Shown here: positions 32,485-43,629 of the stretch, in pieces
Numbering within the stretch: position 1 is the stretch's first letter
Layout: each line of letters begins with the position of its first letter
Source of the DNA: an uncultured delta proteobacterium
Lineage (GTDB): Bacteria; Myxococcota_A; Polyangia; Polyangiales; Polyangiaceae
Direction: 5' to 3'
NCBI GenBank assembly: GCA_963782055.1
Contig: CAWAIF010000003.1
Span: forward strand, 3,936,001-4,000,000
Length of the DNA stretch: 64,000 bases
Notes under the pieces: generated by a model
The model's database searches: none
Told to the model about the DNA's origin: nothing
What the model saw: the letters and a program-made list of their open reading frames with translations, nothing else
Made by a program: the position numbers and the translations under genes

Positions 32485-33030
32485 GTGGAGCCCCTGCCCT
32501 TCCTGTCGCGGTTCTTCCTCGCCTACGTCTTCTTCTTCCGCGCCATCTTCGATGGCGACTTCGCCGCGCGTGCGCTCGCGGTGCGCGACCGCATGCCGGA
32601 GCTGCCCGCGCCCAAGCCCGAAGCGCCCCCGCCGCCCGAGAAGAAGGACCGCTCGTACGACGAGGCGCTGCTGCTGCTCGGCCTGCTCCAGCGCGAGGGG
32701 CGGCTCCTCGACTTCGTCGAGCAGGACGTGGCCGCCTTCTCCGACGCCGACGTGGGCGCGGCCGCACGCCTGGTCCACGACGGCTGCCGCAAGGCGCTCC
32801 GCCAGCACGTGGAGCTCGCGCCGGTGCGCGAGGAGGAAGAGGGCGCGAAGGTCACCGTGGAGACGGCCTTCGACGCCCAGCGCGTGAAGCTCGTCGGCGA
32901 CGTGAAGGGCTCCGGCCCCTACGCGGGCACCCTGCAGCACCGCGGCTGGCGCGCGAAGGGCATCACCCTCCCGGAGCCGATGAGCGGCCACGACGCGACC
33001 GTGCTCGCGCCGGCGGAGGTGGAGGTCTAG
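32485..33030 (+). CDS. DUF2760-like protein
   Basis: ALLLLGLLQREGRLLDFVEQD...DADVGAAARLVHDGC...GTLQHRGW...APAEVEV. Likely start GTG 32485. Confidence 0.8.
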   Translation: MEPLPFLSRFFLAYVFFFRAIFDGDFAARALAVRDRMPELPAPKPEAPPPPEKKDRSYDEALLLLGLLQREGRLLDFVEQDVAAFSDADVGAAARLVHDGCRKALRQHVELAPVREEEEGAKVTVETAFDAQRVKLVGDVKGSGPYAGTLQHRGWRAKGITLPEPMSGHDATVLAPAEVEV

Positions 33031-34833
<1,803 letters not shown>

Positions 34834-34835
34834 CG

Positions 34836-37574
34836 ATGGCGGGGAAGCGGCACGTCGTCGGCATCGACCTGGGCACGTCCAACACGGTGGTGGCGCGCGC
34901 CCGGCGGGAGGCCTCGAGCGAGGCGCCGGAGGTGCTCCCCGTCGCGCAGCTCGTCGCGCCCGGGCTGGTGGAGGGGCGGCCGCTCTATCCCTCGTGCCTC
35001 TTCGCCGCCCTGCCGGGCGAGGCCGGCGGCGATCCCTTCGGCGAGCTGCCCTGGGTCTCCGGCGAGCTGGCGCGCCGGCGCGGCGCGGAGGTGCCGGGCC
35101 GCCTGGTCGCCTCCGCCAAGAGCTGGCTCTGCCACGCCGGGGTGGACCGCGGCGCGCCCATTCTGCCGTACGGCGTGCCGGACGAGGACGTGCCTCGCGT
35201 GTCTCCGGTGGCGGCGAGCGCCCTCTTCCTCGCCCACCTGCGCCGGGTGCACGACGAGGCCTTCCCCGGCGATCCGTTGACGAGTCAAGAGATCGTCCTG
35301 ACGGTGCCGGCGTCCTTCGACGACGCGGCGCGCTCGCTCACCCTGCGCGCCGCGGCCGAGGCCGGCCTCTCCCCGGTGCTGCTGGAGGAGCCGCTCGCCG
35401 CCTTCTACGACTACCTGGAGCGCGAGCACGAGCTCGCCTCCCTCGTCGACGCGCGCGGGGGCGAGGCGCGCGTGCTCGTCTGCGACGTGGGCGGCGGCAC
35501 GACGGACCTCTCCCTCGTGCGCGTGGCGCGTCGCGCCGGCGGCGATCTGGACCTCGCGCGCGTCGCGAGCGGGCGGCACCTGCTGCTCGGCGGCGACAAC
35601 ATGGACCTCGCCCTCGCCCACCTCGCCGAGTCGCGGATGGTCCCGGCGCCGGAGCGGCTCGCCCCCGCCCTCTTCTCCCAGCTCGTCCACGCGTGCCGCG
35701 CGGCGAAGGAGTCGCTGCTGGGCGCCGGCGCGCCGGCGGAGGCGGTGGTCCGCCTGGCGCGGCCGGGGGCGAAGCTCGTCGGCAACATGCTCACGGCCAC
35801 CCTCACGCGGGAGGACGCCGAGAAGACCGTGCTGGAGGGCTTCTTCCCCGACGTCGATCCCGACGAGCCCCCCGCGCGCCCGCGCGCCGCGCTGGTGAGC
35901 TTCGGCCTGCCGTACGAGAAGGACGTGGCGGTGCCGCGGCACGCGCTGCGCTTCCTGCGCCGCCATGGCGGGCACGGCGCGGTGGACGCGGTGCTGCTCA
36001 ACGGGGGCGTCTTCCGCGCCGAGCGCATCGCCGCGCGCCTCGTCGCCTGGCTGTCGCGCGTGGCCGGGCGGGAGGTGGTGCGGCTGCCGCTCGCCGATCC
36101 CGACGTCGCCGTGGCACGCGGCGCGGTCGCCTACGGGCTGGCGCGCGCCGGGCTGCGGCCGCGCATCGACGCGAGCAGCGTGCGCGCGTACTACCTCGGC
36201 CTCGCCGGCGGCGCGCAGGCGGTGTGCGTGGCGCCGAAGGGCGCGCGGGAGGGCGAGCGGCACGTGGCGCAGGGCCGCGCCTTCCACCTGGTGGTCGGCA
36301 AGCCGGTGCGCTTCGACCTCTACGCCTCCGAGGATCGCGACGCCGACCGCCCGGGCAACCTCGTCACCGTCGACGACACCTTCGAGCGACTCCCGCCGGT
36401 GGCGACGGCCATCGATCAGTCCCACCAGCGGCGCGCCGCGGAGGACGTGACGGTGCTGCTCAGCGGCGAGATCGGCGCCACCGGCACGCTGGCGCTCCGC
36501 TGCGAGGAGCCGCCGGAGCCGGAGGGCATGGGCCGCGTCTTCGAGCTCGCCTTCGACCTGCGGCCGGAGCCGGAGCGGTCCGCCCGCGGCGCCTCCCTCC
36601 CGCCCCCGTCGGTCTCGCCGAAGCTGGAGGAGGCGCGCGCCGCGATCGAGCGCGTGTTCGGCAAGAGCGCGACGGCGACGCCGCGGGAGGTGAAGGACCT
36701 GCAGCGGGATCTGGAGCGCATCCTCGGCGAGCGCGCGAGCTGGACCGGCCCCACGCTCCGCGCCCTCTTCGACACCCTCGCGCACAACCCCGGCGGCCGC
36801 CGCCGCAGCGCGGATCACGAGCGCGTGTTCTTCGCCCTCGCCGGCTACTGCGCCCGCCCCGGCTTCGGCGACCCGGGCGACCCGGCGCGCGTCGACCTCA
36901 TGGCGCGCCTCTTCCCGGAGCGCCTCGGCTTCCCCTCCGAGACGCGCGGCTGGCAGCAGCTCTTCATCGCCTACCGGCGCGTCGCCGGCGGCATGGACGA
37001 GGCCGCGCAGGCGATGATCCGCGACACGCTCGACCCGGTGATCGCCCCGAAGGAGGCGGGCTTGCCGCGCAACAAGAAGTTCCAGCCGCTCGCGCAGGCG
37101 GAGCTCACCGAGCTCGCCTCCTTCCTCGAGAGGGTCCCCGCGTCGCGGCGCGAGGCCCTCGGCGAGTGGCTGCTGGAGCGTACCTGGACCGACGCCTCCC
37201 CTGCCCTCTGGGCGGCCATCGGACGCGTGGGCGCCCGCGTCCCGGCCTACGCGGGCGTCGACCACGTGGTGGCCCCGAAGGCGGTGGAGCGCTGGCTGGA
37301 TCACTTGACCCGTCAATCATGGAAGGGCATCGCCACCGCCGCCGACGCCGCCGCCCGGATGGCCCGCCTGACCGGCGACCGCGCGCGCGACCTCTCTCCG
37401 CGCGCGCGCAAGGACCTGGAGCGCAAGCTCACCCGCGAGGGCGGGCGGCCGGAGCAGCTCCGTGCGCTGCGCGAGGTGGTGCCGCTCGAGGCGAAGGACC
37501 AGGCCGATATGTTCGGCGACGCCCTGCCGGTGGGTCTCAAGCTGGCGGCCGGGCCCCGCGTGCGCGTGGACTGA
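34836..37574 (+). CDS. Atypical Hsp70-family protein with long C-terminal extension (DUF3731-like)
   Basis: VGIDLGTSN, LTVPASFD, DVGGGTTD, LGGDNMD. C-terminal RRRSADHERVF...GYCARPGFGDPGD...WAAIGRVGAR...FGDALPVGL. Confidence 0.88.
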   Translation: MAGKRHVVGIDLGTSNTVVARARREASSEAPEVLPVAQLVAPGLVEGRPLYPSCLFAALPGEAGGDPFGELPWVSGELARRRGAEVPGRLVASAKSWLCHAGVDRGAPILPYGVPDEDVPRVSPVAASALFLAHLRRVHDEAFPGDPLTSQEIVLTVPASFDDAARSLTLRAAAEAGLSPVLLEEPLAAFYDYLEREHELASLVDARGGEARVLVCDVGGGTTDLSLVRVARRAGGDLDLARVASGRHLLLGGDNMDLALAHLAESRMVPAPERLAPALFSQLVHACRAAKESLLGAGAPAEAVVRLARPGAKLVGNMLTATLTREDAEKTVLEGFFPDVDPDEPPARPRAALVSFGLPYEKDVAVPRHALRFLRRHGGHGAVDAVLLNGGVFRAERIAARLVAWLSRVAGREVVRLPLADPDVAVARGAVAYGLARAGLRPRIDASSVRAYYLGLAGGAQAVCVAPKGAREGERHVAQGRAFHLVVGKPVRFDLYASEDRDADRPGNLVTVDDTFERLPPVATAIDQSHQRRAAEDVTVLLSGEIGATGTLALRCEEPPEPEGMGRVFELAFDLRPEPERSARGASLPPPSVSPKLEEARAAIERVFGKSATATPREVKDLQRDLERILGERASWTGPTLRALFDTLAHNPGGRRRSADHERVFFALAGYCARPGFGDPGDPARVDLMARLFPERLGFPSETRGWQQLFIAYRRVAGGMDEAAQAMIRDTLDPVIAPKEAGLPRNKKFQPLAQAELTELASFLERVPASRREALGEWLLERTWTDASPALWAAIGRVGARVPAYAGVDHVVAPKAVERWLDHLTRQSWKGIATAADAAARMARLTGDRARDLSPRARKDLERKLTREGGRPEQLRALREVVPLEAKDQADMFGDALPVGLKLAAGPRVRVD

Positions 37575-37603: not shown

Positions 37604-38083
37604 ATGCCCTCCGCCTCCGAGCTCGCGCCGCTGGTCATCCCATCCACAGGCATCACCCTCACCGAGAAGGAGGCCGAGGCCATCCTGGAGATCGCCTACC
37701 TGGCCATCGCCGCCGACAGGCGCCTCTCCGACGACGAGCTCGTCGCCTTCCGCGGCATGATGGGGCGCCTCCGGCCGCTCGCGGCGGGCGGCGCTCCGGC
37801 GACCGGCCCGGTCTCGATGAAGGATCTGGACCGCACCCTCGACCGCCTCAACGCCCTGCTGGAGCGCGTGGACCGCGACGAGCACCTGCGCACGCTGGCG
37901 AGCGACCTCTCCCCCGCGGCGCGCGAGCTCGCTTACAAGGTGGCGTACGCCCTCGGCCTCGCCGACATGGACTCCAGCGACGCCGAGTTCGAGTTCGACC
38001 TGCAGCTCGTGGAGGCGCTGGACCTCCAGAATGACGTCGCCGAGACGCTCGCCGACGAGGTGATGGGCGTCCTCAACGGCTAG
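37604..38083 (+). CDS. TerB-like helical protein
   Basis: AILEIAYLAIAADRRLSDDE...AYALGLADMDSSDAE: two AD-x3-SxxE repeats typical of the TerB fold. Confidence 0.7.
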   Translation: MPSASELAPLVIPSTGITLTEKEAEAILEIAYLAIAADRRLSDDELVAFRGMMGRLRPLAAGGAPATGPVSMKDLDRTLDRLNALLERVDRDEHLRTLASDLSPAARELAYKVAYALGLADMDSSDAEFEFDLQLVEALDLQNDVAETLADEVMGVLNG

Positions 38084-39509
38084 GGTCCTTGCCCGCCTTC
38101 ATCCGCGCGAGCCGGTCTGCCGCCACCTTCTCGTACGCCGGCCGCCGCTGCCCGGGCGGCAGCGAGCGGTACAGCGCGAGCTGATCCTCCACCGCCTTCC
38201 GGGCCTCCTTCTTCCGGCCCAGGGCGAGCAGGATGTCCGCGCGCAGGGCGTAGATGAGCCCCTTGCGCGGGCCGTACGCGAGCTTCAGCGCGCGGTCGGC
38301 GGCGGCGAGCGCGTCCTTCGGCCGCTTCGCCTCCAGGTACGCCTTCGCGAGGCGATGCGGCACGTTGTAGTCGTCGGGGAGCTCCTTCTCCCGCGGCTCG
38401 AGGAAGCGCACCGCGTCCGCCGGGCGCCCGAGGTAGAGCAGCGTCTCCAGCCGCGCGCCGTCGTAGGTCGTGGCGATGGCGGGGTCCGGCGCCCTCGCCG
38501 CCGCCGCCTCCACCAGCGCGAGCCGCGCCTTCGCCGTCGACACCGCGCCGTCGTGGTCGCCCAGCCGGTCCTGCACGTCCCAGAGCAGGCGCATCGCGTC
38601 CCCGCGGTCGTCGGCGGAGAGGGGCGCCGACGCGTCGGCCACCAGCGCCTTCATCCGCGCCTCCACCACGCCGAACAGCCGCTTCGCGCGCGGGTCCTCC
38701 TTCTTCAGGTGCGCGGCGCACTCCACCGCCGTCGTCGCGAAGTCGGTGCACGACGAGGAGCTCCCGGTGTCCCCCAGCGAGGCGAGCCCCAGGTCCGCGC
38801 AGGCGCCGTCGTCGCCCGCGCGCTCGAGGGCGTCGATGCGCGACACCAGCGCGTCGGGCAGGCGCGCCCAGCCCCCCGGCGCCTTCGCGATCGCCGCGGC
38901 GTAACCCCTCGCCGCGGCGGCGAAGCGCCCGGCGAGACCGAGCCTGTCGGCGTCGCGCAGCAGCGCCAGCGCGTCGTCGTGCGGGAGCTCGGAGGTATGT
39001 GCACTCTGCACGGATCGCTCGGCGTCGGCCAGGAACGCGCGCATCTGCGCCACCGAGGCCGCCCCCTCCCACCGGCCGTGCACGCTCTCGTCGGCGGGGT
39101 CGACGACGAAGAAGGTCGGGAGCACCTTGACCGGCAGCTTGCCGCACGCGGCCTCGTTCTTCGGGTTCTCCACGTCCATCGAGAGCCAGACGAAGCGCGA
39201 GCGCGGCAGGCCGGCGTCCTCCAGCACGTACGCGCGCATCGACCGGCAGGTGTGGCACCACGTCGCCCACGCGTCGATCACCACCGGGCGGTGCGTCTGC
39301 TTGCCGAGCGCGATCGCCCGCGCGTAGTCGTCGTCCACCCACGGCTCGGGGGCCGCGGCAGCCGGCCTCGCCGCCGGTGCCGCCGTCGCGCGCGCCGGGG
39401 CGGCGACCGACGAGGCCGCAGGGCGTGACGCGACCACCGGCGACGGCGGGCCGCCGCACGCCACCAGCGCCGCCAGGGCGGCCCACCTCGTCGCGAGCGC
39501 GTGTCTCAT
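38073..39509 (-). CDS. Thioredoxin-fold lipoprotein with TPR-like repeats
   Basis: Lipobox LVAC, WATWCHTC redox motif, helical TPR-like C-terminus. Confidence 0.8.
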   Translation of the reverse strand: MRHALATRWAALAALVACGGPPSPVVASRPAASSVAAPARATAAPAARPAAAAPEPWVDDDYARAIALGKQTHRPVVIDAWATWCHTCRSMRAYVLEDAGLPRSRFVWLSMDVENPKNEAACGKLPVKVLPTFFVVDPADESVHGRWEGAASVAQMRAFLADAERSVQSAHTSELPHDDALALLRDADRLGLAGRFAAAARGYAAAIAKAPGGWARLPDALVSRIDALERAGDDGACADLGLASLGDTGSSSSCTDFATTAVECAAHLKKEDPRAKRLFGVVEARMKALVADASAPLSADDRGDAMRLLWDVQDRLGDHDGAVSTAKARLALVEAAAARAPDPAIATTYDGARLETLLYLGRPADAVRFLEPREKELPDDYNVPHRLAKAYLEAKRPKDALAAADRALKLAYGPRKGLIYALRADILLALGRKKEARKAVEDQLALYRSLPPGQRRPAYEKVAADRLARMKAGKDPSR

Positions 39510-39516
39510 CCGCCCC

Positions 39517-41319
39517 TCATGGTGCCACGCCGCCCGACTCCAGCCACCTGCGCGCCTGCGCGCGGATGGCGTCGTCGGTCGCGTACAGGTCGATCGGCGA
39601 CTTCGTCCCCAGGATGGAGGCGAGCGCGTCGTCGGCGTAGAAGCGCACGAGCGGGTAGTCGTTGGTGAGCTGCCCGGCGACGAGGACCGCGACCGAACAA
39701 TCCTTGCGCTCTCCCAGCAGCCGCAGCGCCACCGCCTGCTCGTGCGGCTTGCCGCGCGCCAGCGTCGCGACGAGCGGCCGCGCGTCGAGGCTGCCGTACA
39801 GCTCGTGCTGCAGCGTGCGGTCCAGGTGCGTGCCCCAGAAGCTGTCCATCTCGTCCAGGATGGTGCCCACCGTCTTGTCGGTGTGGCAGAGCGCGCACTC
39901 CAGCGGGCGATCGCGGAGCACCATCGGGTCGTTGGGCGATTCGATGCGGTGGTAGCGCCCCAGCCGCACGTCCAGGGTCATGTTCTTCCGGGGCATGTGG
40001 CAGGCGACGCACCGTCCGCCCTCCCGCGCCGGGTCGTGGTGGGTGTGTGCGCGCTGGGCGGCCACGCTCGCGTACTTCGTGTGGCAGCCGGTGCACACCG
40101 CGTCGCCTGCGGGCGTCTCCAGCCTGTCGGTGAGCGACTTGTCGTCGGGGGAGTGCGGGTCGTGGCAAAGCGTGCAGTCTGCACGCATCGAGCACTTGGA
40201 GAGCAGGAAATCCCGCCCCTCGCCGGAGTTGATGTTGCTGCCGCCCGGGTCCTGCGCCCTCAGGCCGCCCTCCCACGTGTAGGGGTAGCGGGAGAAGAGC
40301 ACCTGGTGGCAGCGCGCGCAGGTCCGGTTGATCCGCTGGGCGCGCACGGCGGCGGGATCGCCCTCGTCGCCCGCCACGTGGAGGAACGGGGTGTGCGGCA
40401 GGAAGCTCGGGGCGACGCTCGGATCGCGCACGTGCTCCTTCGCGCCGCCGTGGCACGACTCGCAGCCGATGCCCACCTCGACCAGCTTCTTGCCGTCGAA
40501 GTCGGCGCGGGTGGTGGCGATGGCGCGATCGAGCAGGCGCGGATCCCCCGGCGAGGGGCGTGTGCCGGAGAGGAAGGCCACGTCGTCGGCCAGGGCGTCG
40601 CGCAGACCGTCCTCGTCGTCGACGACGGTGCGCCAGCGCAGGTCCTGTGGCAGGAGCGGGTCCACCACCTCGCCCTGGTAGACCGAGCGCCGTCCCTTGG
40701 CGTGCGGCAGCGGCAGCGAGCCGAGCATGGAGGTGAAGTACGGCGCGGTGTTGTGGCAGAGGATGCACGTCTTGCTCCACACCGGCCCGGCACGCAGCCC
40801 GTCGCGCTCGTGCGACATCACCGAGTAGCCCTTGTAGCGAAACCTGCCGTCGAAGATGAGGTACGAGACGGGCAGGATGAGCTCCTCGTGCGACTCGCCT
40901 CCCGGGCCGACCTGCACGCCGGCGTAGTCCTCGCGGTAGTGCCCGCCGATGACCCGCGTGACGCGGTAGCGCGCGTCACCGTAGCGCCGCGAGTACACCG
41001 AGACGAAGCGCTGGTCGCCCTTCTGGTCGAGCTCCACGCGGTCGTCCTTGAACCGCAAGGCGGTGCCGTGGAAGGGCGCGCGGACCCGAGCGCCCGGGAG
41101 GTCGCGCGTCATGTTGTGCATCGGAGCCCTGTCCCATTGCGCCACGATGGCACCGTGGCAGGGCGCACACGCCGCGGACCCGGCGTAGTCCGCGCGCAGC
41201 ACGTTGCTACGGACGACCCCACCCTCCCCGCGCGCCTGGGGCGAGCGCGCGCCGCGCGTCGACGCGCACGCCGCGGCCAGCGCGACGGCGACGAGGACGA
41301 GCGGGGTGGCGCTACGCAC
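39517..41319 (-). CDS. Octaheme c-type cytochrome lipoprotein with C-terminal HEAT-like region
   Basis: Lipobox LAAAC. Eight CxxCH motifs: CAPCH, CILCH, CESCH, CARCH, CTLCH, CTGCH, CVACH, CALCH. Confidence 0.88.
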   Translation of the reverse strand: MRSATPLVLVAVALAAACASTRGARSPQARGEGGVVRSNVLRADYAGSAACAPCHGAIVAQWDRAPMHNMTRDLPGARVRAPFHGTALRFKDDRVELDQKGDQRFVSVYSRRYGDARYRVTRVIGGHYREDYAGVQVGPGGESHEELILPVSYLIFDGRFRYKGYSVMSHERDGLRAGPVWSKTCILCHNTAPYFTSMLGSLPLPHAKGRRSVYQGEVVDPLLPQDLRWRTVVDDEDGLRDALADDVAFLSGTRPSPGDPRLLDRAIATTRADFDGKKLVEVGIGCESCHGGAKEHVRDPSVAPSFLPHTPFLHVAGDEGDPAAVRAQRINRTCARCHQVLFSRYPYTWEGGLRAQDPGGSNINSGEGRDFLLSKCSMRADCTLCHDPHSPDDKSLTDRLETPAGDAVCTGCHTKYASVAAQRAHTHHDPAREGGRCVACHMPRKNMTLDVRLGRYHRIESPNDPMVLRDRPLECALCHTDKTVGTILDEMDSFWGTHLDRTLQHELYGSLDARPLVATLARGKPHEQAVALRLLGERKDCSVAVLVAGQLTNDYPLVRFYADDALASILGTKSPIDLYATDDAIRAQARRWLESGGVAP

Positions 41320-41337
41320 GCCCGCAGGATAGGTCGC

Positions 41338-41439
41338 TCAATCGGTGAACGGGAGTTCCTCGAGCTCTTCCTCGTCGTCCGGCAGCTCCGGCTGCGACTC
41401 GTCAATCTCGGGGGCCTGTTCCAGCGGTTGGGGGTTCAT
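41338..41439 (-). CDS. Putative 33-aa acidic peptide MNPQPLEQAPEIDESQPELPDDEEELEELPFTD
   Basis: ATG to TGA ORF below the 60-aa track cutoff. It fills the intergenic gap and sits directly downstream of a sigma-54 motif. Confidence 0.5.
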   Translation of the reverse strand: MNPQPLEQAPEIDESQPELPDDEEELEELPFTD

Positions 41440-41451
41440 GCCTCCGCAACG

Positions 41452-41467
41452 AGCAACAGGCGTGCCG
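41452..41467 (-). promoter_or_regulatory. Candidate sigma-54 (-24/-12) promoter
   Basis: Minus strand CGGCACGCCTGTTGCT against consensus TGGCACG-N4-TTGC(A/T): one mismatch, exact GG-N10-GC spacing. Confidence 0.7.
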
Positions 41468-41558
41468 TCTTCCGTCCTGTGGAAAACGCGGGCAATTGTG
41501 CCCCTTCGCCGCGCTGAGCATGCGCAGCGCCCTTCGCGGACCGCGCACGTCCAGCGAC

Positions 41559-42995
41559 TCAGCGGCCGGAGTAGACCTTCACCTCCAGCGTGCCCAGCCG
41601 CGGGAACTCGTTCGCCGCGAGCGGCACGTCCTCCTCCTGGCCGTTCAGCGAGAGGCGAACGCGCGTCACGCCGGGGATGCGCTGCAGCGCATCGCGCAGG
41701 CGCCAGCCCATCTTCTGGTCCTCCGAGCCGAAGTCCACGTGCGGGTTGTAGACCGCGCGGGTGTTGGGCTCGAAGATCTCGGCCAGCTCCACCTTCGCCT
41801 CGCTCGCCACGGTCGCCGGGCTCGCGTCCAATCCGACGGTGAGCGAGGCGCTCACGTCGAAGGACCGGTAGACGGGATCCTCCACGCGCAGCGCCAGCGG
41901 GTCGCTACAAGGGATGCCCCGCGCGTCGGCGAGCGCCGCCGCCTTCATCGCCGCGGTGGCCACGCCGCCGGACTCCGGCACGAGCAGCAGCACGCCCTCG
42001 CCCTCCCGGATGGACCGGTCCTGCGCGCGGGTCAGCAGGACGGCCCGGCCCAGGCCATGGATGTCCTCCGGCAACCGCTCGGCGAAATACGCGCGCGCGT
42101 CCACGCAGCGGGGGGCCACCTCCATCGGCGTGGCGAGGTGCGCCGGCGCCGGCGGGGGCGCGTGGACGTGGAGGAACGCCGCGAAGGGCGCGGCGGCGAC
42201 CGCCACCCCCAGCATGCTCATCACCGCGCTGCCGCGCCGCTCGATCGGCGAGAGAGCGTCGCGCAGCGCGAGGTGGCACCGCGCCACGGCGCGCCCGGCG
42301 GCGCTGGAGCGGTACGACGCCACGCCCGCGTCGTCGCGACGGATGAGCACCGCGTCGGTGAGCGAGCCGCTGAGCAGCGGCGGGAGCGTCTCGTAGCCGT
42401 GCGCCTCCGCCTCGGCCATCACCCGGAACGCGCCGTGCTCCCCCCGGTGCACCTGGCGCAAGAACCCCGCGCGCGCGCGATCGCGATGGAGGATCATCGC
42501 GAGGGAGACCACACCGCTCGCGAAGGCGAGGGCGCCGAGCCCCACCGCGACGGCGGAGGGCGCGGCCATCGCCGCGACGCCGGCGATCGCCAGGCCGCCG
42601 CCCGTGCGCACGCCGACCCGCTCCATCCTGTCCAGCGCGCCCTCGGCGAGGGTGACGCGGTGCTCGCGCAGCGCGGGGCCGAAGAGCACCGTCGCGAGGA
42701 GCGCCGGCCCGGCGGCGCAGAGCAGGAGCGCGCCCCCGCCGCTCGCTCGGCCGACGAGCACGCCGCAGAGCGCGCCCACCAGCCCGCCGCCGACCAGCAT
42801 GGTGAAAGCCCACCGCATGCGCACGGCGAGCGCCCCCAGCGCCGCCCCGCCGGCGGCGCCCAGCGCCACGCCGAGCGACGAGGCGCCCTCCGCCCCGAGC
42901 ACGGCGGCGAAGAGCGCGCCTGTCGTCAGCGCGGCCGACACGCCGAAGAGCCGCCGCAGCACCTGCTCCGATGGGAAGGACGGCTCGAGCTGCAT
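41559..42995 (-). CDS. Multi-pass membrane protein with C-terminal phage baseplate J/gp47-like domain
   Basis: N-terminal Gly/Ala-rich TM helices. C-terminal RAVLLTR...GVLLLVPESGG...VEDPVYRSFDV...NPHVDFG...RIPGV...LSLNG...EFPRLG, which I recall as resembling baseplate wedge protein C-termini. Confidence 0.6.
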   Translation of the reverse strand: MQLEPSFPSEQVLRRLFGVSAALTTGALFAAVLGAEGASSLGVALGAAGGAALGALAVRMRWAFTMLVGGGLVGALCGVLVGRASGGGALLLCAAGPALLATVLFGPALREHRVTLAEGALDRMERVGVRTGGGLAIAGVAAMAAPSAVAVGLGALAFASGVVSLAMILHRDRARAGFLRQVHRGEHGAFRVMAEAEAHGYETLPPLLSGSLTDAVLIRRDDAGVASYRSSAAGRAVARCHLALRDALSPIERRGSAVMSMLGVAVAAAPFAAFLHVHAPPPAPAHLATPMEVAPRCVDARAYFAERLPEDIHGLGRAVLLTRAQDRSIREGEGVLLLVPESGGVATAAMKAAALADARGIPCSDPLALRVEDPVYRSFDVSASLTVGLDASPATVASEAKVELAEIFEPNTRAVYNPHVDFGSEDQKMGWRLRDALQRIPGVTRVRLSLNGQEEDVPLAANEFPRLGTLEVKVYSGR

Positions 42996-43089
42996 GCCTT
43001 CATGCTGATGGGCCAGCGGCGGGTTGGCAAGGCCTGCCGGCCATCGTCAGTCACCCTGCCCTTCCGGCTGTCTGCCGGCCTGGGTGACC

Positions 43090-43629
43090 TCAGGTCGACC
43101 GCTCGTAGACCATCAGCTCGCCGAACATGTCGGTCTCCCGGAAGCCGACGTGTCGCATGCCCACCTTCTCCAGCACACGGAGGCTGGATTGATGCCACGG
43201 GAAGGTGCACGCCTGCACCCGGGCGACCTCTCGCTGGTCGAGCGCCCAGGTCACCACCGCCGCCGTCCCCTCCGTCGCGTAGCCCTTGCCCTGGAAGGAC
43301 TCGTCCACGCCGTAGGCGACCTCGACGGTGCCGGCGTCGTCCGGCCGCCCGCTGAGGACCACGCTTCCGACGACCAGCCGCCGACGCTCCGCGCCCGCCG
43401 GGCGCGCCACGAGCACCCGCGCCCCCCAGAGCCACGCCTCCGGATCCTGCCGCAGCTTCTCGATGGGGCAGGAGAATGCGCGCTCCACGAGCGCCCGGCC
43501 CGGCCAGAGGTTGGGGAAGCGGGCGCCCACGATGCCCTCCGCGCCCGTGCGATCGCCCTGGAACACCGCCTCGACCAGGTCGCGGGTGATGGGCAAGAGC
43601 TCGAGCCTGGGTGTGAAGATCCGCTCCAC
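43090..43629 (-). CDS. RimJ/RimL-type GNAT N-acetyltransferase
   Basis: TPRLELLP, VEVAYGV...FQGKGYATE, SLRVLEKVGM. Confidence 0.85.
   Translation of the reverse strand: MERIFTPRLELLPITRDLVEAVFQGDRTGAEGIVGARFPNLWPGRALVERAFSCPIEKLRQDPEAWLWGARVLVARPAGAERRRLVVGSVVLSGRPDDAGTVEVAYGVDESFQGKGYATEGTAAVVTWALDQREVARVQACTFPWHQSSLRVLEKVGMRHVGFRETDMFGELMVYERST

Follow-up and report, generated by a model that had tools for sequence, protein, structure and literature searches.

Can a single part of a phage tail, taken out of its machine, become a protein of the bacterial cell? It is established that bacteria domesticate entire phage tails, keeping them as T6SS, eCIS and tailocins. In the window analysed here (the whole stretch of 64,000 nucleotides), one gene joins a multi-pass membrane module and a baseplate-wedge head in one chain. 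A sequence-only reading of this DNA had taken it for a domesticated phage structural domain on a membrane anchor, and had offered as possible roles a decoy that poisons tail assembly, a phage sensor and an anchor for a contractile system encoded elsewhere. We asked what the two halves are, where the fusion comes from and which of these roles it could have.

A wedge head on a membrane module

The gene occupies positions 41559..42995 on the minus strand, starts with ATG and encodes 478 aa, as had been read from the sequence. Both halves show host-like codon use, with a GC3 of 0.97 in the N-terminal part and 0.96 in the head. Pfam and NCBIfam profile searches with the whole protein gave no match, and neither did a scan of the gene for sigma-70 promoters and terminators. 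In soil metatranscriptomes (four runs from two studies) a fraction of 0.05–0.06 of the words was present; since the contigs measured 112–168 bases at a depth of 2–3, they provide no evidence on the expression of the gene.

Seven hydrophobic helices are spread over aa 10–277, interrupted by a soluble stretch at aa 170–255, and are followed by a proline-rich linker and a head of 182 aa. The AlphaFold model of the protein has a mean pLDDT of 87, with lower values in the linker. The first four helices (aa 10–118, 42642..42968; all features of the protein lie on the minus strand) are Gly/Ala-rich and predicted as TM1–4 by hydropathy and models; alignment gaps indicate that their number differs between orthologues. 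A predicted TM5–TM6 hairpin with a short uncharged loop (aa 123–169, 42489..42629) lies 3' of a conserved LD.xER motif. The soluble stretch (42231..42488) is a predicted cytoplasmic subdomain, with an RD..R helix, three strands and the pair Tyr228-Arg229 (nt 42309–42314). It leads into the last predicted TM helix (aa 256–277, 42165..42230), which on the K/R bias would run from inside to outside. The Pro/Ala-rich linker (aa 278–296, 42108..42164) is the fusion joint, homology beginning at about aa 289–297. The head consists of the middle alpha/beta domain of a wedge (aa 297–372, 41880..42107) and a C-terminal domain (aa 373–478, 41562..41879) that in fold alignment is the equivalent of the lateral dimerisation domain of pyocin PA0618. 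The earlier description of about 290 aa of helices and linker was right in these two elements and missed the conserved soluble subdomain; the baseplate part had also been recognised, with an estimated length of about 170 aa that has to be corrected to about 182 aa (aa 297–478, nt 41562–42107).

All motifs on which the suspected resemblance to baseplate J/gp47 proteins had been built are found in the translation (LVPESGG, VEDPVYRSFDV, NPHVDFG, IPGV and LNG..EFPRLG), and the resemblance is borne out by profiles and by structure. The head matched phrog_6 (baseplate wedge) with an E-value of 4.6e-5, and 7 of 21 fusion proteins matched this profile individually. When the 21 fusions were compared with 35 full-length wedge proteins by hhalign, query residues 289–478 fell on template residues 296–503 with a probability of 99.8 and an E-value of 6e-30. 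PF04865 (Baseplate_J) was found in 34 of the 35 template proteins, and a PDB search with the profile of the long wedge proteins in turn retrieves T4 gp6 and the wedge of the Streptomyces CIS. A search with the head among 1.84 billion representatives gave 84 matches, fusions first and then proteins of about 500 aa, and its ESM Atlas neighbours were Baseplate_J_C/M at 0.94–0.96. Word-based searches were insensitive (4 matches in each of two, none in a third).

The fold comparisons point in the same direction. A fold search with the head gave 31 matches at E<=0.001, and when the AlphaFold model was compared with 48,161 chains, all of the top 21 rows were baseplate wedges. The A-1(L) wedge (8kea_b) aligned with a Z of 13.9 and an rmsd of 3.5 over 169 residues, Mu gp47 with a Z of 12.1 and the C-terminal crystal structure of T4 gp6 (3h2t) with a Z of 9.0, while the C-terminal domain of pyocin PA0618 (5ces_B 202–292) fell on aa 373–476 (Z 9.8, rmsd 2.9, 90 residues). 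Neither the fusion profile nor the last domain gave a useful match in sequence searches of the PDB, so that the bridge to solved structures is formed by fold and wedge profile only. By both, the head has the C-terminal middle and dimerisation domains of the gp6/J/gp47 family. The N-terminal core-bundle helices and the wing region are absent; homology starts at residue 296 of the 503 of the template.

The membrane module (aa 1–281) matched nothing in Pfam, NCBIfam, PHROG or the Atlas, and its probability against the wedge profile was 0.1. A fold search returned generic helical bundles (best Z 8.3) with no clear assignment, which is not proof of a new fold. In 39 modules with or without a fused head, R229 never varies and positions Y228 and R175 are conserved at 90% or more. 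We also read 39 module ORFs outside the fusions, 36 of which extend no further than the module or stop shortly behind it. Of the other three, one has an archaemetzincin-like head (L032:2228-3715 in G071; NF033823, E 8.6e-14), one a different, Cys-bearing head with no Pfam or PHROG match (L096:3336-4592 in G114) and one a tandem repeat of the module (L100:3326-4609 in G318). The heads of this module are swappable, and the module itself appears to be an uncharacterised family of its own. The zinc motif of the archaemetzincin-like head looks degenerate, and we take the motif of the Cys-bearing head to recall the C-terminus of GspG.

Some further observations concern headless modules. One locus (L083) has three copies within 5 kb and another (L080) two in tandem. 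Ser/Thr kinase genes adjoin headless modules at these two loci and at L078, L082, L106 and L109, a weak lead in that three of the six come from one genus, the scan covered only part of the neighbours and kinases are frequent at these loci. A search of the source genome for paralogues of the module gave one weak match (C3:4369509, E 0.03), which was rejected as it lies opposite another gene.

Distribution, genomic slot and donor type

The source genome, that of a soil myxobacterium, is a 7.58-Mb assembly that is 97% complete. We found the fusion in 10 of 383 Polyangiaceae genomes and 3 of 89 genera, counts that are floors because this census used a stricter filter: five of the seven genomes of the window's genus, two in g38 and three in g20, where a contig end truncates one of the fusions. 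Further orthologues come from nine metagenome contigs, and the search for the same fusion in relatives, which had been proposed as a check, was thereby answered. A phylum sample of 301 genomes (277 outside the family) contained no further fusion. The head was not found in G045 and G156, two of the seven genomes of the window's genus; given this absence, the gene is dispensable. Head-only matches, which are wedge genes, occur in 33 of the 383 genomes and the module alone in 47, some of the latter being weak.

The gene lies outside any tail operon. Upstream is a GNAT acetyltransferase gene (43090..43629, minus strand; PF13302, E 2e-17); downstream follow, also on the minus strand, a multihaem cytochrome c gene (39517..41319) and a gene for a thioredoxin-like (CxxC) and TPR protein with an N-terminal signal-like stretch (38073..39509). 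The latter two are likely exported redox proteins. With the fusion, these genes form a run on one strand (38073–43629) that may be one operon. Among 18 related loci, GNAT is upstream of the fusion at 12, cytochrome c downstream at 10 and thioredoxin-TPR within about 4 kb at 5; cytochrome or thioredoxin is found downstream on the same strand at 12. Six loci lack GNAT and six lack cytochrome and thioredoxin. In each count, four of the six end at a contig edge, and the remaining two, G019 and G098, retain a thioredoxin-TPR homologue 4 kb away. PADLOC, run on a chosen set of 60 proteins (fusions, their neighbours and modules lacking a head), did not match the fusions; its only output was weak domain-level matches to one Hsp70-like and one OmpA-like neighbour. 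The fusion has one fixed slot in three genera, a stable place among housekeeping genes and not, as far as this subset scan goes, a prophage, satellite or defence island; it appears to be chromosomal and vertically inherited. Further along the window (32485–37574, plus strand), a small gene precedes a tandem pair of Hsp70-like genes, the first for 600 aa (scanned, matching PF00012) and the second for about 914 aa, and this arrangement also adjoins the fusion in G108 and G037.

In a quick, midpoint-rooted tree of 110 heads, 34 fusions and 3 fragments fell on one side of a branch with an SH-aLRT of 100 and the 73 other rows on the opposite side. As judged from this tree, the heads form one clade, which would go back to one capture. 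The reading frame was open in all 15 fusion genes examined. In four close pairs, the dN/dS of the head (Nei-Gojobori) was 0.10 (L041/L043), 0.29, 0.33 and 0.38, with dS near saturation and probably underestimated at a GC3 of 0.96; these values indicate purifying selection on the heads. The head was more conserved than the membrane half in L041/L043 (88% vs 70%) and G108/G037 (68% vs 57%), whereas the pair G019/G098 showed the reverse. The whole fusion gene shares 33–46% identity with its orthologues, compared with 49–81% for its neighbours, and this faster divergence would also fit a conflict. The module tree is poorly resolved: the membrane halves of the fusions do not form one clade (2 changes, weak support), and headless clades placed among them may be head losses. 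The stable chromosomal slot, the open frames and the dN/dS below 1 agree with the domestication that had been suggested from the sequence. Neither of the two outcomes named beforehand as refuting that reading, a lack of similarity to baseplate proteins or a unique chimera in decay, was observed.

The nearest full-length relatives of the head (33–37% over the head) are encoded in tail operons of Polyangiaceae prophages of the myovirus type. In G114, the one donor-type tail operon examined in full, the wedge gene is accompanied by terminase, portal, major head, integrase, sheath, tube, hub, spike and gp25 genes. The donor, by these similarities, would be the wedge gene type of a myovirus-like prophage. 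A full wedge gene is present in 1 of 10 fusion genomes and in 32 of 373 others (Fisher p 0.6, at low power and with non-independent genomes); G098 carries both the fusion and a cognate prophage wedge gene. The wedge gene of this prophage family (L029, L030, L134, L135 (G114:C15) and L009–L021) is widespread in Polyangiaceae genomes and frequently multicopy; a literature search for such prophages found no publication.

Topology and remodelling of the head

In 17 fusions, the mean number of K and R per 15 residues was 4.8 after TM6, 4.2 before TM7 and 2.3 after TM7, and K/R in the TM5–6 loop was 0.3. The count was higher before than after TM7 in 13 of the 17 rows, tied in 3 and reversed in 1. 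Under the positive-inside rule, these counts would place the Tyr-Arg subdomain in the cytoplasm and the head in the periplasm. Taken together with the cysteine pair described below, the charge distribution makes a periplasmic head very probable.

The fusion heads have a fixed pair of cysteines. C297 (nt 42105–42107) is present in 36 of 37 fusion heads, the other having a gap, and in none of 73 wedge rows; C363 (nt 41907–41909) is present in all 37 fusion heads compared with 30 of the 73 wedge rows. Exactly two cysteines were counted in 33 of the 37 heads. In the model, C297 starts the first helix of the middle domain and C363 lies just past the second, an arrangement that would bring both to the same end of the domain, and a C297-C363 disulfide is predicted with good confidence. 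Cys338 of T4 gp6 is reported to be critical for the N-terminal dimer (PMC3004832). This residue aligns one position off C297, as counted in the alignment, so an inter-chain bond may be possible in the fusion protein.

The dimerisation domain has also changed. The helix at aa 427–441 (41673–41717) is charge-reversed, with a net charge of +3.5 in fusions vs -1.8 in wedges. We assume that the dimer-interface residues of pyocin R2 (about 250–257) correspond to helix 430–438 of the fusion head. The SD..F helix, highly conserved in wedges, has turned Arg-rich in the fusion heads and one loop is lost; therefore the dimer contact of the ancestor may no longer exist. Like charges on the remodelled helix could oppose self-pairing of the heads. 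The surface residues of wedges are not retained, and the positions newly conserved in fusions are C297, H323 and the basic helix. In the phage and tailocin proteins, the C-terminal part makes the inter-wedge dimer that closes the ring in T4 (gp6, PMC3004832) and the ring-closing lateral dimer of the diffocin wedge (PMC10996793).

Possible roles of the fusion protein

Our best explanation, to which we would give about an even chance of being right, is that the head has been domesticated as a contact or clustering domain in the periplasm, on a membrane protein that is receptor-like and not a tail part. The C-terminal fragment of a wedge would have been captured once by a family-wide membrane display module and locked by a new disulfide in the periplasm. 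The remodelled dimerisation domain would bring copies together or bind an envelope partner, and the state of the head would be relayed through a membrane core of three helices to the Tyr-Arg motif in the cytoplasm as output. As for the cysteine pair, it may be set or read by the likely exported thioredoxin and multihaem cytochrome encoded next door. Since no fold could be clearly assigned to the membrane module, the receptor role is proposed by analogy.

The head could instead be a structural passenger, a cap or spacer in the periplasm that is stable, locked by a disulfide and devoid of any specific partner, on a module that works as its headless kin do. The existence of headless modules (47 of 383 genomes, some weak) and of unrelated heads would suit such a passenger, as would the loss of the wedge surface residues and the weakly supported headless clades among the fusion modules. 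However, in most pairs the conservation of the head equals or exceeds that of the membrane half, and the new fusion-specific positions C297, H323 and the basic helix also speak against it. We regard this alternative as rather unlikely.

An anti-phage trap or sensor, whose head would bind wedge proteins or baseplates of Polyangiaceae myophages, also seems improbable. Such binding would take place as the cell lyses or, given an inverted topology, in the cytoplasm, and would block ring closure or be signalled via the module. It is true that the nearest relatives of the head are wedge proteins from prophages of the same host family, that the retained part is the ring-closing dimer domain and that divergence is fast and presence patchy. 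The charge reversal of a conserved acidic helix would, moreover, suit binding of the phage version, and the protein could be conceived as a membrane-tethered mirror of the ring-closing domain that captures host-family myophage wedge proteins through this helix, an idea that we consider doubtful. Phage tails assemble in the cytoplasm, whereas the head, with its invariant Cys pair, is predicted to be periplasmic; the subset scan with PADLOC gave no defence context, the slot is stable across three genera, and donor prophages show no sign of being excluded from fusion genomes. The tail-poisoning decoy of the sequence-only reading is weakened accordingly: a head that most likely lies in the periplasm would be away from tail assembly, and it lacks the core bundle with which wedges are built and sits in a housekeeping slot.

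A role in holding a contractile injection system encoded elsewhere at the membrane, also raised in that reading, is very unlikely. Membrane partners of such systems exist: CisA of the Streptomyces coelicolor CIS is a membrane protein predicted to contact the wedge component Cis11 (PMC12237407), and it resembles the fusion as a membrane protein tied to a baseplate wedge component. CisA, however, is bitopic, is described as binding Cis11 via its cytosolic part and comes with a complete CIS (PMC12237407), whereas the fusion has the wedge domain in its own chain and no CIS. The source genome does contain a lone tube-like gene and a lone sheath fragment, and G037 has the fusion and an eCIS-type locus. 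On the other hand, the fusion is the sole phrog_6 or wedge-profile match in its own 97%-complete genome, where a search for PF04865 and six-frame family searches for PF17482 and the T6SS sheath protein VipB came back empty (one of the six-frame searches missed the weak sheath fragment) and tblastn with the G114 tail proteins matched only the fusion. No other wedge, no sheath beyond this fragment, no hub and no T6SS module was found, and the earlier statement that the window holds no other tail gene is borne out for the queries used, which covered the whole genome. The ten fusion genomes, drafts of 83–98% completeness, include one with a tube over the cut-off and nine with none, and sheath-like matches occur in 2 of 10 compared with 72 of 383 overall. 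It is the sole wedge homologue and the nine genomes with no tube over the cut-off that make an anchor so unlikely. Since the core bundle, like the wing region, is missing and the gene is outside a tail operon, the fusion protein does not functionally belong to the wedge family.

The tail-like genes mentioned above deserve a short description. The sheath fragment (C3:2674027-2674443, plus strand; L121:2028-2444) is a lone C-terminal domain of 138 aa with a signal-peptide-like N-terminus, located between a kinase gene and a gene for a small membrane protein. It matches phrog_17610 (E 2.5e-10), with PF17482 under the cut-off, and is possibly a second exported tail fragment. The other six members of the genus gave no match to it, and a dispersed system of tail fragments was rejected on this ground; nor do other fusion genomes share it. 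The tube-like gene (C3:5168883-5169638, plus strand; L118:8884-9639) encodes 252 aa, matches PF06841 (T4 gp19-like, E 6.5e-8), looks like two tube-like halves and has non-tail neighbours. The eCIS-type locus of G037 (L119, G037:C6:96000-115999) comprises sheath, tube and baseplate J.

A one-off decaying chimera left by a prophage insertion can practically be discarded: the gene is alone in its genome and its best orthologues reach 43–48% identity, none of them close, but it recurs with open frames and a dN/dS below 1 in three genera and nine metagenome contigs, has a host-like GC3 and keeps a fixed slot.

How does the domesticated contact or clustering head compare with known systems? It shares the last two domains with the gp6/J/gp47 wedges (T4 gp6, Mu gp47, pyocin R2 PA0618, diffocin Tri2 and S. 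coelicolor Cis11; PF04865, phrog_6), and the likeness covers the fold, the sequence signature and the lateral (inter-wedge) dimerisation domain. Unlike these wedges, the fusion sits on a membrane module, has no core bundle, wing region or tail operon, and its head is predicted to be periplasmic, with a new cysteine and a charge-reversed helix. Host-side proteins that act on tail assembly provide another parallel. Tab is a tail-assembly inhibitor (PMC10884400), and in the case of Rta and the chimeric tails of PLE, the PLE encodes its own homologues of tail parts (PMC11838301). These systems are found on prophages or satellites and reportedly act via the tape measure protein, whereas the fusion is chromosomal, membrane-bound and likely faces the periplasm. 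A search of the open-access literature gave no description of this fusion protein. It is a single tail part exapted as a cell protein, and its fusion to a membrane module is apparently undescribed.

In the Polyangiaceae, a single wedge fragment has been excised from its machine, likely moved across the membrane and kept in three genera. Both parent types are still found in relatives, which makes this a tractable case of a virion part becoming a cell protein. The fusion also exposes an unannotated membrane module of the family, whose outer heads are interchangeable and whose Tyr-Arg motif is near-invariant. Binding of phage wedges by the head, if it occurs, would represent a new principle of defence or sensing; and if the head is a mirror of the ring-closing domain, the protein would be a new type of receptor or trap, directed at the baseplates of contractile tails and built on a myxobacterial display module that is itself undescribed.
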